From Candidatus Coprenecus pullicola (GTDB lineage: Bacteria; Bacteroidota; Bacteroidia; Bacteroidales; UBA932), in the NCBI GenBank assembly GCA_018711925.1, contig DVHR01000001.1:47-64046 (forward strand): DNA of 64,000 nt, written 5' to 3'. Numbering within the stretch: the stretch's first letter is position 1; the number at the start of each line of letters is the position of its first letter. The notes beneath the pieces are model-generated. The model ran no database searches. It had not been told where the DNA came from and worked only from the letters and a program-made list of their open reading frames with translations. Below are positions 24,655 to 41,715 of this stretch, in pieces. Both the position numbers and the translations under genes were made by a program.

Positions 24655-26346
24655 ATGGACAACATATTTCACAAGTCACTCCGGGCCCTGCTCGAGTACT
24701 CCAACGCACATTACAATGGCAACACCTTTCTAAGCTTCATCGGAGGAGAGGGATACACCTACGGTCAGTTCTACGTAAAAGCCTGCGGGACTGCAAGGCT
24801 CCTTTTTCAATACGGGATGCGTCAGGGCAGTCTGGTAGGACTGCTGTCCCAGAACATGCCTAACTGGGGCGTAGCCTATTTCGCCACAGCCGCCTTCGGC
24901 ATGATTACAGTGCCGATGCTTCCGGATTTTTCCGAAAGCGAGATCAAGCACATACTGAAACATTCTGAGACAAAAGCCCTTTTCGTATCCAGAAAACTGC
25001 TTCCTAAAGTACATGAGAAAGCCATGGACAGACTTGAGCTGGTCATCTGTCTTGACGATTTTTCCATCATCAAGGGCACACCGTGCGGAGAGCCGGCAGC
25101 CCTGCCGTCAGAAGAAGACATACAGCCGGATGACCTGGCCGCCATCATCTACACTTCCGGAACGACAGGAAGTTCCAAAGGCGTGATGCTGAGCCACAAG
25201 AATCTGTGCGCCAATCTATGGTCCACCGAAGACGTGCGTCCCAGCTTCGAATGGGACGTGTGGCTGTCCCTGCTGCCCCTGTCCCACACTCTTGAGTGCA
25301 GCATGTGCCTGCTTCTGCCGATGAACGCAGGCGCGTCAGTGTACTACATTGACAAGGCCCCCACCCCGACCATCCTCATGAAGTCCCTGGCAGAGGTCAG
25401 GCCCACCACCATCCTGTCCGTGCCGCTTATCATAGAAAAGGTATACCGCAGCGCGGTTCTGCCCAAGCTCACCGCTACACCGATAATGAGATTCCTTTAC
25501 AGAATACCCCCGTTCCGAAAGTTAATGAACAGAAAGGCCGGAAAAATGCTGATGGAGAAATTCGGAGGACGCATCCGCTTCTTCGGCATCGGGGGAGCAA
25601 GACTGGACCCCGAGGTGGAACGCTTCCTGCTTGAGGCCCGTTTCCCCTACGCCATCGGCTACGGGCTCACCGAGACCTCTCCGCTCATCGCAGCAGCCAC
25701 CCCGGACATGGTGCGGCTCGGCTCCACCGGCCCGGTAGTCAAAGGCGTGGAGCTGCGTCTGCTCAACAAAGACCCTAAGACAGGCGTGGGAGAGATAGCC
25801 GTCAAGGGAAACAACGTCACACGTGGCTATTTCAAGAACCCCGAGGCCACTTCCGCAGCCTTCACCGAGGACGGCTGGTTTCTGACAAAGGATCTCGGCA
25901 AGCTGGACAAGGACGGCTGGCTCTACATCAAAGGCCGCTCCTCGACTACCATCATCGGCCCGAGCGGCGAGAACATCTATCCCGAAGAAGTCGAAAGCGT
26001 CATCAACAGCCACGATATGGTGTCCGAGTCCCTGGTCACCAACCGCAAGGGCAGACTTACGGCCCTTGTCCACTTCGATTCCGAGAAACTCAAAGCCTTT
26101 TTGGAATCCACCGACGAACTCAAGCGTACTGCTCATGAAAGGCTGGAGAACCTTAAGAAAGAGATTCTGGACTATGTCAACCAGAAAGTCAGCAAGTTCT
26201 CCCGCATCAGTGAGATAGACCAGCAGGACGAGGCTTTCGAGAAGACTGCCACCCACAAGATCAAGCGATACCTCTACGACGGCACCAAGTCCAAGGACTC
26301 CAAATCCAAGGACTCCAAATCCAGCAAGCCCTCACACAGCAGGTAA
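24655..26346 (+). CDS. Long-chain fatty acid-CoA ligase (AMP-binding enzyme)
   Basis: 563 aa with YTSGTTGSSKGV and GYGLTET motifs. It has a low-complexity KSKDSKSKDSKSSK tail. Confidence 0.85.
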   Translation: MDNIFHKSLRALLEYSNAHYNGNTFLSFIGGEGYTYGQFYVKACGTARLLFQYGMRQGSLVGLLSQNMPNWGVAYFATAAFGMITVPMLPDFSESEIKHILKHSETKALFVSRKLLPKVHEKAMDRLELVICLDDFSIIKGTPCGEPAALPSEEDIQPDDLAAIIYTSGTTGSSKGVMLSHKNLCANLWSTEDVRPSFEWDVWLSLLPLSHTLECSMCLLLPMNAGASVYYIDKAPTPTILMKSLAEVRPTTILSVPLIIEKVYRSAVLPKLTATPIMRFLYRIPPFRKLMNRKAGKMLMEKFGGRIRFFGIGGARLDPEVERFLLEARFPYAIGYGLTETSPLIAAATPDMVRLGSTGPVVKGVELRLLNKDPKTGVGEIAVKGNNVTRGYFKNPEATSAAFTEDGWFLTKDLGKLDKDGWLYIKGRSSTTIIGPSGENIYPEEVESVINSHDMVSESLVTNRKGRLTALVHFDSEKLKAFLESTDELKRTAHERLENLKKEILDYVNQKVSKFSRISEIDQQDEAFEKTATHKIKRYLYDGTKSKDSKSKDSKSSKPSHSR

Positions 26347-26818
26347 ACCGAAACTCCGCCCAACCGGTATACCTGCGCCCACTTTTATGAAAAATCCGGC
26401 AGTCGAAAAGACCAGGCCCTCCCACCGCTTCGCGGCGGGTCCCTCCCTCTAGAGCCGAGGGCGGCTAGTCTTTTCTCGTTGCTGGAATTTCATAAGAACA
26501 CCATACGGAGGAAAATGTCGTTTCCCCAAAGGCTGGCTTAATAAGAACTTTTACAATGTCCAACACACCGCTCAAATGTATTGTGTTGATTATTAAACGC
26601 ATACATTTTGGCGATTTGCTGGACTGCCCGCTTTTTGCCATAAAACCGCCATTTCACCCCAGGTCCAGCAGATGCTCTTTTTCAGAGTGCCTGTATACTA
26701 GGCACTTTCCCAAGCAGGCCCTGCTGGACCTCCCCTGAAGTCTCATGCCGCGAGGGAATGTGAACCGTTTTCGCAGGAAAGCCCGGCACTTTCCCCGGGG
26801 GGAGGGAATGGCGAGTGC
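26335..26818 (+). repeat. Left arm of the large inverted repeat (structured module, core module and first hairpin unit)
   Basis: Reverse complement of 41237-41715. Hand alignment shows 26401-26482 and 26610-26735 are base-for-base identical to rc(41566-41647) and rc(41318-41443). Confidence 0.85.
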
Positions 26819-27120
26819 CGCCAGAGATGGCTGTGGAGCCGGTGCCCCGGCAGGCCACGGGGGAAAGTGAACCGTTTTCGCAGGAATTCCCGGCACTTTC
26901 CCCGGGGGTGGAAACGATGAGTGCAGCGAGATAGGCCTCTGGAGCCGGTGCCCCGGCCGGCCACGGGGGAAAGTGAACCGTTTTTGCGGAAAATCACGGC
27001 ACTTTCCCGGGGGGGAGGGAATGGCGGGTGCCGCCAGAGATGCCTGTGGAGCCGGTGCCCCTGCGAGCCACGGGGGAAAGTGAACCGTTTTCGCCGAAAT
27101 TCCCGGCACTTTCCCCGGGT
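26752..27120. repeat. Tandem array A: 4 units of about 107 bp, each with a 10-bp-stem hairpin
   Basis: The anchor TGAACC recurs at 26761, 26868, 26974 and 27081. Each unit holds GGGGAAAGTG-N24-CACTTTCCCC. The inter-hairpin segments are also conserved. Confidence 0.85.
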
Positions 27121-27179
27121 GTCTAGGACAAGGGGAGAAAAAACGCAAAGGTGGGACGAAATGTTGAGTGAAATGAAAA

Positions 27180-27576
27180 GGTAAAAGGGCGTGTGACTGG
27201 ATGGGCTGACGGGGATGAGGTGGGACGGAAAGGCACAAGGGCGTGTGACTGGAGGGCTGATGGGGATGATGTGGGACGGAAAGGCACAAGGGCGTGTGAC
27301 TGGAGGGGCTGACGGGGATGATGTGGGGACGGAAAGGTAAAAGGGTATGTGACTGGGGGTTGACGAGGATGATGTGGGACGGAAAGGTACAAGGGTATGT
27401 GACTGGAGGGGCTGACGGGGATGATGTGGGACGGAAAGGCACAAGGGCGTGTGACTGGATGGGCTGACGAGGATGATGTGGGACGAAAAGGTAAAAGGGC
27501 GTGTGACTGGAGGGGTTGACGAGGATGATGTGGGACGGAAAGGCACAAGGGCGTGTGACTGGAGGGGCTGACGGGA
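27180..27576. repeat. Tandem array B: 8 G-rich units of 50-53 bp
   Basis: The anchor TGACTGG recurs at 27194, 27246, 27297, 27350, 27400, 27452, 27504 and 27556. A representative 52-nt unit has 26 G and 7 C on the plus strand. Confidence 0.85.
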
Positions 27577-27606
27577 CAAGAATGAGACGAGATGGCGAAC
27601 AGAGAA

Positions 27607-40336: not shown

Positions 40337-40340
40337 CATT

Positions 40341-41186
40341 ATGAAGATAAGAAGCAAATCCATATCGGCAGCGTTCGTGCTGCTTCTGCTTGTCTCCGTT
40401 CCCGCCCTTACGGCTCAGGATCTGGTGATACTCCATACCAATGACACCCATTCCCAGATAGAGGAGATACGAGTCGGCCGTGGTGCGGGTGCAGGAGGCG
40501 TACACCGCCGCGCCGAGTATTTTCACCAGGTGATATCGCAGTATGGCCGGGACCGCGTCCTGCTGCTTGATGCCGGAGACTACAACCAGGGCACACCGTA
40601 TTTTACGGTCTTCAAGGGAGATCTGGAGATGGAACTGATGAATGCCCTCGGATACGAGGTAGTGGCCATCGGCAACCATGAGTTCGACAACGGAGTGAAC
40701 GAGTTTGCCAGACGGCTTTCAAAGGCGGAGTTCCAGACAGTCTGCGCCAACTATGACTTCTCAGGTACTGCTCTGGAGCCTTATGTAAAACCGTATACTA
40801 TCGTGTATAAGAACGGCCGCAAGATAGGCGTCTTCGGCCTGTTGGCCAACATTAAGTCGCTTGTTGCCAAACAGAACCGGGAAGGATTGGTCTATATTGA
40901 CGCTTATGAGGCCGCTCAGAGATGGGCTGACTATCTCAAGAACGAGGAGCACTGCGACCTGGTAATCGCCCTGTCACATCTGGGTTATTCGGGCTATCCC
41001 AATCAGCGCACGGATATCAATCTGGCCAGGAACACCCGCAACATAGACATCATCATCGGCGGTCACAGTCACACATTCCTGAAATCCGAAAAGATCTACC
41101 CCAATCTAGACGGTGAGGACGTGATTATCGTCCAGGCCGGAGCTCAGGGCGAATACGTCGGCCGCCTCGACATCACATTCGACTGA
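40341..41186 (+). CDS. Metallophosphoesterase (5'-nucleotidase N-terminal domain)
   Basis: 281 aa with a signal peptide. Contains HTNDTH, DAGD, GNHEFD and GGHSH motifs. Confidence 0.85.
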   Translation: MKIRSKSISAAFVLLLLVSVPALTAQDLVILHTNDTHSQIEEIRVGRGAGAGGVHRRAEYFHQVISQYGRDRVLLLDAGDYNQGTPYFTVFKGDLEMELMNALGYEVVAIGNHEFDNGVNEFARRLSKAEFQTVCANYDFSGTALEPYVKPYTIVYKNGRKIGVFGLLANIKSLVAKQNREGLVYIDAYEAAQRWADYLKNEEHCDLVIALSHLGYSGYPNQRTDINLARNTRNIDIIIGGHSHTFLKSEKIYPNLDGEDVIIVQAGAQGEYVGRLDITFD

Positions 41187-41226
41187 CCTCCTCCACCCTC
41201 CTCCCTCACCTCCCCTACCTCCCCCC
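41187..41226. repeat. 40-nt G-free polypyrimidine-rich tract (G-rich on the minus strand)
   Basis: CCTCCTCCACCCTCCTCCCTCACCTCCCCTACCTCCCCCC begins on the base after the TGA at 41184-41186. It has 0 G and 3 A. The minus strand fits G3+N1-7 x4. Confidence 0.8.
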
Positions 41227-41236
41227 ACAGAAAGAC

Positions 41237-41715
41237 TCACAGTCTCCACCCCCGGTGGGGAAAGTGCCGGGAATTTCCGCGAAAATGGTGCACTTTCCCC
41301 CGGGGCATGAGACTTCTGGGGAGGTCCAGCAGGGCCTGCTTGGGAAAGTGCCTAGTATACAGGCACTCTGAAAAAGAGCATCTGCTGGACCTGGGGTGAA
41401 ATGGCGGTTTTATGGCAAAAAGCGGGCAGTCCAGCAAATCGCCAGATTGTATGCGCCTAACAATCAGTGTGATACATTTTAGCAGCATGTTGGACATTGT
41501 AAAAGTACTAAAGTCAGCCTTTGGGGAAACGACACTTTTCCCCGTGTGAGCGTGGTGAAAATCCGGCAACGAGAAAAGACTAGCCGCCCTCGGCTCTAGA
41601 GGGAGGGACCCGCCGCGAAGCGGTGGGAGGGCCTGGTCTTTTCGACTGCTGGATTTTCATTAAAATGGGTGCAGGTGTACCGGTGTGGCTGGATTTCGGT
41701 TCACCTGCGGTGTGC
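41237..41715 (-). repeat. Right arm of the large inverted repeat (one hairpin unit, core module and structured module)
   Basis: Reverse complement of 26335-26818. It contains GGGGAAAGTG (41257) and CACTTTCCCC (41291), and the three 9-mers. Confidence 0.85.

Follow-up and report, generated by a model that had tools for sequence, protein, structure and literature searches.

A 64,000-nucleotide stretch of DNA from Candidatus Coprenecus pullicola (contig DVHR01000001.1, positions 47 to 64,046; referred to below as the window) carries two inverted-repeat arms, at 26335-26818 and 41237-41715, which bracket a 14.4-kb interval of genes. We consider it likely that these arms are clusters of a dispersed, modular repeat family resembling repetitive extragenic palindromes (REPs) and bacterial interspersed mosaic elements (BIMEs), that the family has a divergent REP-associated tyrosine transposase (RAYT), and that the interval between the arms was inverted once and has been fixed since. 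A first-pass annotation of the window had described the arms and suggested that they could support RecA-mediated inversion of the whole interval, and its interpretation of them is partly supported by the analysis presented here.

The inverted arms and their modules

The inverted repeat is genuine and not due to chance. Global alignment of the left arm (plus strand, 484 nt) with the reverse complement of the right arm (minus strand, 479 nt) gives 428 identities in 493 columns (87%), and a repeat search recovers the inverted pairs 26544-26796/41257-41509 (253 nt, 90%) and 26383-26492/41556-41665 (110 nt, 95%). Pairwise alignment agrees, so that the extents of the arms and their 5-nt difference in length are as first described. 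The two perfect blocks are also present, at sizes of 84 and 127 nt that slightly exceed the 82 and 126 nt originally reported; these longest exact matches pair 26399-26482 with the reverse complement of 41566-41649, and 26609-26735 with that of 41318-41444. A 48-nt piece of the 84-nt block occurs twice in the window, both times in the arms, and in none of 100 dinucleotide shuffles.

Each arm begins with a small hairpin followed by modules that we designate A, B and C, the left arm ending in the first unit of a C array and the right arm, read on the minus strand, in a single C unit. In arm coordinates module A spans 1-158, module B approximately 172-412, and the one unit of the 106-nt C array 413-484. 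The small hairpin (CAGGTAAACCG..CGGTATACCTG; 26340-26375, plus strand) holds the stop codon (26344-26346) of a gene for an AMP-binding enzyme, and its copy in the right arm shows one compensatory change from A-T to G-C. The left module A is a hairpin at 26387-26493 (plus strand) with stems at 26387-26409 and 26471-26493 around a 61-nt core (GACCAGGCCC..GGCTAGTC; 26410-26470), and the 84-nt exact block lies inside it; its right counterpart is at 41556-41660 (minus strand) with the core at 41578-41638. Module B occupies 26496-26746 on the left (plus strand), where a variable 5' hairpin part precedes a conserved 3' part that corresponds to the 127-nt block, and 41307-41552 on the right (minus strand).

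Module C is the REP/BIME-like component. On the left it forms an array of 3.5 tandem units of 106-107 nt (26747-27122, plus strand) with 44-nt palindromes of the form GGGGAAAGTG-N24-CACTTTCCCC at 26753-26796, 26860-26903, 26966-27009 and 27073-27116 (all plus strand), and on the right a single unit (41235-41309, minus strand) with its palindrome at 41257-41300. These five palindromes are the ones in the window, and none appeared in 100 shuffles. Beyond the left arm lies a fourth module, D, a 52-nt G-rich tandem repeat (27151-27616, plus strand; 7.7 copies at 27177-27575 by TRF) that is confined to the left site, just downstream of a gene for a 427-aa protein. The open reading frames (ORFs) 26743-27615 and 41237-41569 overlie these repeats and were taken as spurious, the first having no Pfam match. 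A CRISPR-like array was also ruled out, as the 106-nt units are alike over their whole length and have no unique spacers.

The clusters as members of a dispersed family

To place the arms among relatives, we compared the arm with contigs encoding the neighbouring proteins, and ran the arm and its separate modules by BLAST against all loci collected. These loci and contigs of relatives carry L-numbers below, and pieces of 8-20 kb per genome were read; module copy numbers are lower bounds. The view of the arms as a private pair is not borne out, for BLAST finds the modules at other loci of uncultured Bacteroidales, and module A has at least 4-6 copies per genome. They occur there in the combinations A+C, A+B+C, A+C+B+C, A+C4-gene-C4 and A B C A B C, and in other genomes module A is found in either orientation relative to B and C. 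C arrays with the 106-107-nt period are present at many loci besides the window.

The composition of the clusters varies also at the two arm sites themselves. At the right-arm site, between genes for a SpoIIE-family phosphatase and a Metallophos protein, the arrangement is A+C in L007, L035 and L066; A+B+C in the window, L006, L067 and L068 (the last two being 100% identical to the window across their full 12.8 and 8.5 kb); A+C+B+C in L011; and A+C4, a gene and C4-7 in L004, L005 and L008. Module B is missing from this site in most sister strains. At the left-arm site, next to the AMP-binding gene, relatives have the arrangement A B C(1-5) D(1-10), with the exceptions of a metagenome-assembled genome (MAG), L042, which has A C D without B, and of L021, which has A B C A B C4 D6. 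The copy number of D ranges from 1 to 10 across strains and relatives (L042, L058, L062, L063, L065, L021). Many short-read contigs terminate within the repeat clusters, which are hot spots of strain-level structural variation and break short-read assemblies; this is of relevance to MAG quality, to strain typing and to how the genomes of uncultured gut Bacteroidales rearrange.

Two further observations concern other DNA at such clusters. The right-arm cluster of one sister species, known from a long-read contig, is interrupted by a gene for an IS4-like DDE transposase (L088:13354-14820). In L017:2051-2500 (OZ007032.1) one core of module A is broken off after ..GGGCCCCTCC and is followed by DNA with a further short repeat, AGTCTGTAA and its complement, occurring several times; the 3' half of this interrupted core was not found nearby, and an insertion is not demonstrated.

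A RAYT-type transposase gene in sister strains

The gene that lies between the two C arrays in L004 (12017-12970, plus strand), L005 and L008 encodes a protein of 317 aa and is of lower G+C content. Its site is equivalent to approximately 41240-41310 of the window, and its stop codon falls within a C unit; where the window has its single right-arm C unit, these sister strains have arrays of at least four units with the gene between them. The protein matches the whole of the NCBIfam profile REP_Tyr_transpos (NF047646) with an E-value of 4.8e-10 (39.5 bits, cut-off 80), and Pfam Y1_Tnp (PF01797) with an E-value of 3e-4 (21.4 bits, cut-off 23). Across approximately 30 clusters of homologues the HxH motif (MS.HVH) and the tyrosine of SYV.RNP are invariant, that is, H51, H53 and Y108 of the protein. 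When a profile of the family was compared with PDB sequences the best match, a weak one at E 0.14, was to E. coli TnpA-REP (4er8), with both motifs aligned. An AlphaFold model of the protein (pLDDT 84.8, pTM 0.86) has as its top Foldseek match 4er8_A, a REP-associated tyrosine transposase bound to a REP hairpin (E 3.9e-6, target TM 0.68), and the next matches are the TnpA proteins of IS608, ISDra2 and IS200.

Homologues of the protein adjoin arrays in L038, L056, L076, L080 and L083. In other lineages, homologues at 70%, 48% and 46% identity adjoin tandem arrays with units of 107, 105 and 106 nt, and the palindromes of these arrays are GGGGGAAAGTGCCCGGG..GGTTCACTTTCCC, CCGGCAGGTG..CACCTGCCG and GAAGGTGCCGAC..CCGGCACCTTC respectively. 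Four palindrome types therefore go with proteins at 100%, 70%, 48% and 46% identity, while the unit length is constant at 105-107 nt. A palindrome and an enzyme that vary together in this way are characteristic of REP-RAYT pairs, and because of this we read module C and the gene as a REP/BIME-RAYT-like system. In this system C would act like a REP/BIME element with its own RAYT, a HUH single-strand DNA transposase that presumably mobilises C. The first-pass annotation had stated that no recombinase gene lies in the window. As regards a RAYT gene this is correct (the rest of the window was not scanned for recombinases), but the right-arm cluster of sister strains carries a gene for a RAYT-type HUH transposase.

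Homologues were also seen close to solitary copies of module A. In Candidatus Coprenecus merdigallinarum (L038:3880-4310) and in an unnamed Bacteroidales MAG (L056:2900-3220 and 6400-6800), an A-only hairpin whose stems are unique has as its neighbour a RAYT homologue accompanied by 106/212-nt arrays of its own. The arrays of L056 form a 163-nt inverted pair around 3.4 kb of DNA that holds the RAYT gene and another gene.

Conserved and variable parts of module B

The alternation of perfect and diverged blocks in the arms had been attributed at first to gene conversion or to selection on sub-blocks, and an alignment of 15 copies of module B, drawn from both arms, other strains, other loci and other species, bears out the latter. 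In all 15 the 3' portion (approximately 130 nt) is near-invariant and the 5' portion (approximately 110 nt) is variable. In the conserved part one copy, at another locus, matches the left arm exactly and the others differ from it by 1-8 substitutions; the variable 5' part of the right-arm copy is closer to copies at other loci than to the left arm. The 84-nt block coincides with the core of module A together with a semi-conserved inner stem, and this 61-nt core, like the 127-nt block, is near-invariant throughout the family. As the exact blocks match cores that are conserved family-wide, we take the mosaic to reflect constraint on sub-blocks, for which recent gene conversion is unneeded, and gene conversion specific to the two arms was rejected as the source of the perfect blocks. 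The perfect blocks in the window would then simply be the parts that every copy keeps unchanged.

Four GCTGGAC/GTCCAGC boxes form the basis of the long imperfect hairpins into which module B folds. A third copy in the window, diverged and standing alone, is located at 11450-11680 (plus strand; BLAST match 11478-11612, 77% identity) between the convergent ORFs 9763-11352 (plus) and 11793-13730 (minus), and shows a few compensatory changes in the GTCCAGCAG/CTGCTGGAC helix. The boxes are kept in this copy, and ordinary terminator-like hairpins lie on both sides of it. A promoter of the Bacteroidetes type (TAnnTTTG) was sought in B; the left arm and the third copy contain TACATTT(T/G), which in most copies is not conserved.

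Module A, a near-invariant core on locus-specific stems

The consensus of the 61-nt core is GACCAGGCCCTCCCACCGCTTCGCGGCGGG(C/T)CCCTCCCTCTAGAGCCGAGGGCGGCTAGTC. A scan of GTDB species-representative genomes for an exact 28-mer of the 84-nt block, which by its nature favours unchanged copies, yielded 48 stretches at 2-6 per genome, in several Candidatus Coprenecus species, Cryptobacteroides, Merdivivens and unnamed 'Alistipes'/Bacteroidales MAGs; the complete 2.5-Mb chromosome OZ006987.1 has five matches. On alignment, the core is near-invariant at approximately 50 sites, including the 33 nt that lie outside the search 28-mer. It caps a stem of 19-29 near-perfect base pairs whose sequence is wholly different from locus to locus, and between orthologous loci the stems show compensatory substitutions (L020 and L024, for example). 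A covariance model of module A finds in the window the two arm copies only, and three further copies in other loci. A-only copies lie mostly between convergent ORFs.

Within the core is a hairpin, AGCCG-AGGG-CGGCT, followed by AGTCTTTTC, which is detected by a terminator scan; in seven sequences an A-T pair of this hairpin is replaced by T-A. Two covariations in the core hint at helices that could not form together. The mismatches in the stems, approximately 7 G.T and 10 A.C, are about equal in number, and hence there is no sign that one strand is a functional RNA. The idea that module A is a mini-inverton was rejected, since the orientation of the core is constant across orthologous loci.

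Module A is most likely a bidirectional terminator or a structural hairpin. Were it a bidirectional terminator, the 3' ends on both strands would fall at the GTCTTTTC tract. We advance only tentatively a more far-reaching proposal, namely that A is an undescribed conserved nucleic-acid element that is read as a structure, whether as single-stranded DNA by the HUH enzyme or another protein or as RNA, and that serves as a terminator and/or as a nucleation site for REP-like arrays, with B being a new small RNA. What remains strange is the near-invariance of the core across genera on stems that are specific to each locus and, to a lesser degree, that of the conserved part of B. The invariant core on such stems makes a good candidate for experiments.

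Orientation of the interval at present

The first-pass annotation envisaged RecA-type inversion of the interval, and as an ongoing process this is not borne out, for a check of synteny in close relatives shows the orientation of the window only. The right junction (SpoIIE, cluster, Metallophos) is found in L004-L008, L035, L066-L068 and L088 and at eight similar places, and the left junction (AMP-binding, cluster, 427-aa gene) in L015, L021, L042 and L058. One MAG contig bears both arms as in the window, and the complete chromosome OZ006987.1, at about 90% DNA identity, has the two A copies 18.6 kb apart in the same arrangement. The other orientation was not found among the assemblies of close relatives, which include one complete long-read chromosome, one long-read contig, several MAGs and more than 15 metagenome contigs that come from different samples. 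No invertase was seen among the genes adjoining the arms, to which the look was limited. From this it does not appear that the interval flips today.

Two junctions deviate from the common arrangement, and neither is the inverted form. In the metagenome contig L001 (11880-12686, coverage approximately 4x) the AMP-binding gene is followed by A B C with one C unit, and then by a DHFR gene on the minus strand where C/D arrays and the 427-aa gene would be expected. DHFR was met at no other locus, and the junction may be a true rearrangement or else a chimera produced in assembly at the repeat. In L074:3084-4434 and L075:2073-3423, the Metallophos gene is followed, from window position 41194, by unrelated low-G+C DNA without the arm. 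An ORF of 204 aa is annotated on the minus strand of this DNA in L074 (L074:3711-4325), and another small one was seen by eye.

A probable past inversion and exchange between the arms

More distant loci, found by way of SpoIIE homologues (SpoIIE identity 77% in L087, 76% in L084 and 73% in L085), have a different gene order. L087 has both flanking genes in equal relative orientation without arms, the spacers being 7 and 10 nt, and its interior reads DUF3108- CNNM- tdk- rsmI+ comEA+ ABC+ ABC2+ 5'nuc+ Metallophos+; in the same frame the window reads Metallophos- 5'nuc- ABC2- ABC- DUF3108- CNNM- tdk- rsmI+ comEA+. Downstream of SpoIIE, L085 has comEA- rsmI- tdk+ ABC+ ABC2+, the exact inverse of the order in the window, so that an order like that of L085 and one inversion of the whole interval would give the order of the window. 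In L084 the CNNM gene is flipped. The core of module A was not found in the outgroup loci. In L084, L085 and L086 (approximately 9160-10615) SpoIIE is followed by a co-directional gene for a [FeFe]-hydrogenase-like protein of about 477 aa, which neither the window lineage nor L087 has at this place.

Strand composition in the window points in the same direction. A regression of skew at four-fold degenerate sites on gene strand and region, over 40 genes, gives a replication-strand component outside the arms of -0.143 (GC) and +0.151 (AT). Inside the arms this shifts by +0.139 for GC (p 0.03) and by -0.125 for AT (p 0.04), so that the component is approximately cancelled. When a 13-gene block is slid over 28 positions, the block bounded by the arms is the extreme one for both shifts. 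Skew at the outgroup loci was too noisy for use.

There is in addition evidence that the arms have exchanged sequence. Unique DNA from beside the left arm, namely about 70 nt from the 3' end of the AMP-binding coding sequence, recurs within the right arm of OZ006987 (L061:7330-7400) and of L088 (approximately 11330-11400). In another MAG, the 5' part of the right arm is of the left type. We conclude that the arms have exchanged sequence; recombination from arm to arm, which the first-pass annotation had considered possible, thus holds within the family, and inversion of the interval appears to hold as a past event. Judged from gene order and skew, the interval was most probably inverted once in the ancestry of the species group and has been fixed since, and the arms, rather than something else, are the likely cause.

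Gene setting

Both arms sit in gaps between convergent genes, a feature that, like the two tandem arrays into which the left arm continues, had not been pointed out before. The left arm is flanked on its outer side by the AMP-binding gene (24655-26346, plus strand), which converges with the 427-aa gene (27676-28959, minus strand) on the inner side, and the right arm on its outer side by the SpoIIE-family phosphatase gene (41846-43009, minus strand), which converges with the Metallophos gene (40341-41186, plus strand). As each arm begins beside its outer gene, the arms are mutually inverted. All four junction genes being convergent, a flip of the interval alters no promoter-gene relation, and a regulatory switch is not expected. 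The 3' end of the AMP-binding gene (26285-26346) is a 15-nt tandem repeat that encodes a low-complexity KSKDSK tail.

The bracketed interval (26819-41236) contains on the minus strand four lipoprotein-like genes (27676-32957), a comEA-like and an rsmI-like gene, and on the plus strand tdk, CNNM, DUF3108, ABC, ABC-2 and a split nucleotidase. Pfam matches uphold the original gene list (HHH_3, TP_methylase, TK, CNNM, ABC_tran with ABC2_membrane_3, and a split 5'-nucleotidase/Metallophos pair), and BACON, Omp28 and DUF4493 domains are found among the proteins of the window, which assigns it to Bacteroidota. The four lipoprotein-like genes (BACON, Omp28, fn3) are not in outgroups L085 and L087. Unlike the remaining interior genes they keep an AT3 skew like that of the flanks, and they may be a later insertion.

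Discussion

We propose that both arms belong to a family of mosaic intergenic clusters which, in one clade of uncultured gut Bacteroidales, lie in gaps between convergent genes. Such clusters would grow, shrink and swap modules by replication slippage, by unequal or ectopic homologous recombination and possibly by the action of the RAYT. Homologous recombination between the two inverted clusters would have led to one inversion of the whole interval in the ancestor of the species group, after which the orientation would have become fixed, so that the arrangement would not be a regulatory switch. The clusters thus appear to have mediated at least one 14-kb inversion together with transfer of sequence between repeats. 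To our knowledge, REP/RAYT systems are known almost entirely from Proteobacteria, and the present data suggest a divergent RAYT-like family that is tied to unusually large palindromic arrays of 106-nt period in abundant uncultured gut Bacteroidales.

Several points weigh against this proposal. There is no RAYT gene in the window itself; judged by its sequence the protein of the sister strains is a divergent relative, with both NCBIfam and Pfam scores under the curated cut-offs; and no A copy was found beside the RAYT gene in L076 and L080, which bears on any dependence of A and B on it. In classical REPs one end of the palindrome bears a conserved tag, GTAG or CGTC (PMC3733652), whereas C units begin with GGGGAAAGTG and have no such tag. 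Their 44-nt palindromes in 106-nt units also differ from REPs of 20-40 nt, and the copy numbers seen are small for classical REPs. As regards the inversion, the outgroups are distant and carry other rearrangements, so that the breakpoints are not certain to be at the arms, the skew test is modest (p approximately 0.03-0.04, 40 genes), and there are the two deviant junctions described above.

Part of the evidence would also suit an interval that is still inverting. If the 14.4-kb interval were actively and reversibly inverted at the arms, by RecA or in a programmed manner, with both orientations coexisting, an interior skew near zero and not reversed would be expected from time spent in both orientations, and the other order in the outgroups and the trace of arm-to-arm transfer would also be accounted for. 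The minimal length needed for RecA-dependent homologous recombination is below 84 nt, and the exact blocks of 84 and 127 nt both exceed it. However, all close relatives are in one orientation at both junctions, and with four convergent junction genes a flip would change no relation of promoter to gene, so that we regard active inversion as improbable. It is also conceivable that the clusters settled at the ends of the interval after an inversion of other cause, the breakpoints between convergent genes being permissive. Clusters do generally lie between convergent genes and take up other mobile DNA (the RAYT gene in L004, the IS4-like transposase in L088), and L087 has identical gene junctions with spacers of 7-10 nt and no repeats. 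Against such later settling, the arms are in every genome with the inverted order and absent from three outgroup loci, and there is direct evidence of exchange between them; we therefore think it unlikely, if less so than continuing inversion.

Other explanations concern the nature of the repeats. A recent segmental duplication of one intergenic region, with patches then homogenised by gene conversion, would place perfect segments among others of about 80% identity, and is in keeping with the conversion-like transfer in the sister species and with the T variant of the core that both window arms share, most other right arms having C. Yet copies at unrelated loci and in other genera conserve the blocks just as well, the right-arm B is in its variable 5' part nearer to copies at other loci than to the left arm, and a relative with about 90% DNA identity has clusters at both arm sites, which makes this the most improbable of the explanations considered. 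Somewhat more room must be left for the view, in our opinion still rather doubtful, that A and/or B are structured-RNA genes or 3'-untranslated-region elements (a terminator-associated element or a small RNA) and that the REP/RAYT link of C is incidental. This view is favoured by the extreme degree to which the 61-nt core and the 127-nt block are conserved between genera, and likewise by folding z-scores of -5.9 and -4.1 on the two arm strands, the A-T to T-A covariation in the AGCCG..CGGCT hairpin with the T-run after it and its match in the terminator scan, and the compensatory changes in the GTCCAGCAG/CTGCTGGAC helix of the third B copy. On the other hand, Rfam 15 gave nothing at gathering score in the whole window and only chance-level matches (E > 1) in 26200-27800, with no family matching even at E up to 10, and a tRNA/tmRNA scan found nothing. 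The near-equality of G.T and A.C mismatches in the A stems (approximately 7 and 10) gives no strand signal, the core of A varies too little for a test of structure, and by eye no conserved promoter of the Bacteroidetes type lies upstream of B. We therefore continue to favour a dispersed family of REP/BIME-like clusters and a single, fixed inversion.

Comparison with known systems

The invertons and shufflons of Bacteroidales likewise consist of inverted repeats flanking a DNA segment in a gut Bacteroidales genome. The arms described here differ from them in being hundreds of nucleotides long and not 10-30 bp, in affecting no promoter or coding fusion, the junction genes being convergent, and in that no invertase was seen next to the arms and no second orientation was observed. 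A further parallel is provided by inversions between inverted repeats such as rrn operons, insertion sequence copies or REP/BIME clusters, which also have inverted homologous segments at the ends of a block, an opposite block order in outgroups and a strand skew that departs from that of both flanks. Here, however, the arms are only about 480 nt long and 87% identical, the event would be old and fixed, and the presence of the arms at the time of the event is an assumption.

Among intergenic repeats, enterobacterial repetitive intergenic consensus (ERIC) sequences and other long imperfect palindromes, and the BrickBuilt element of Porphyromonas gingivalis, a miniature inverted-repeat transposable element with a minisatellite, are conserved structured repeats common to several species, and include composites with internal tandem arrays. 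Module A is unlike these in being conserved at its apex only, on locus-specific stems, and terminal inverted repeats and target-site duplications were not identified here.

The clusters also resemble REP/BIME-RAYT systems, with a number of differences. The 44-nt palindrome is set in a tandem unit of 105-107 nt without a GTAG/CGTC tag, the protein, of about 310 aa, carries the motifs (S/T/N)HVH and Y(V/I)xRNP, ends in a conserved domain of about 180 aa and has scores under the curated cut-offs, the copy numbers seen are low (these being lower bounds), and the large conserved modules A and B have no counterpart in described BIMEs. What is shared is an arrangement of extragenic palindromes in regularly spaced arrays, combined with other motifs into mosaic clusters at gene 3' ends; a HUH/Y1 transposase gene embedded between the palindromes, here in sister strains; a palindrome and a transposase that change together between lineages; and a predicted fold closest to E. 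coli TnpA-REP (4er8). Among such systems the closest subgroup is the RAYT subclass 2.6 of Bacteroidetes, described as 'flanked by atypical secondary structures' (PMC6006769).

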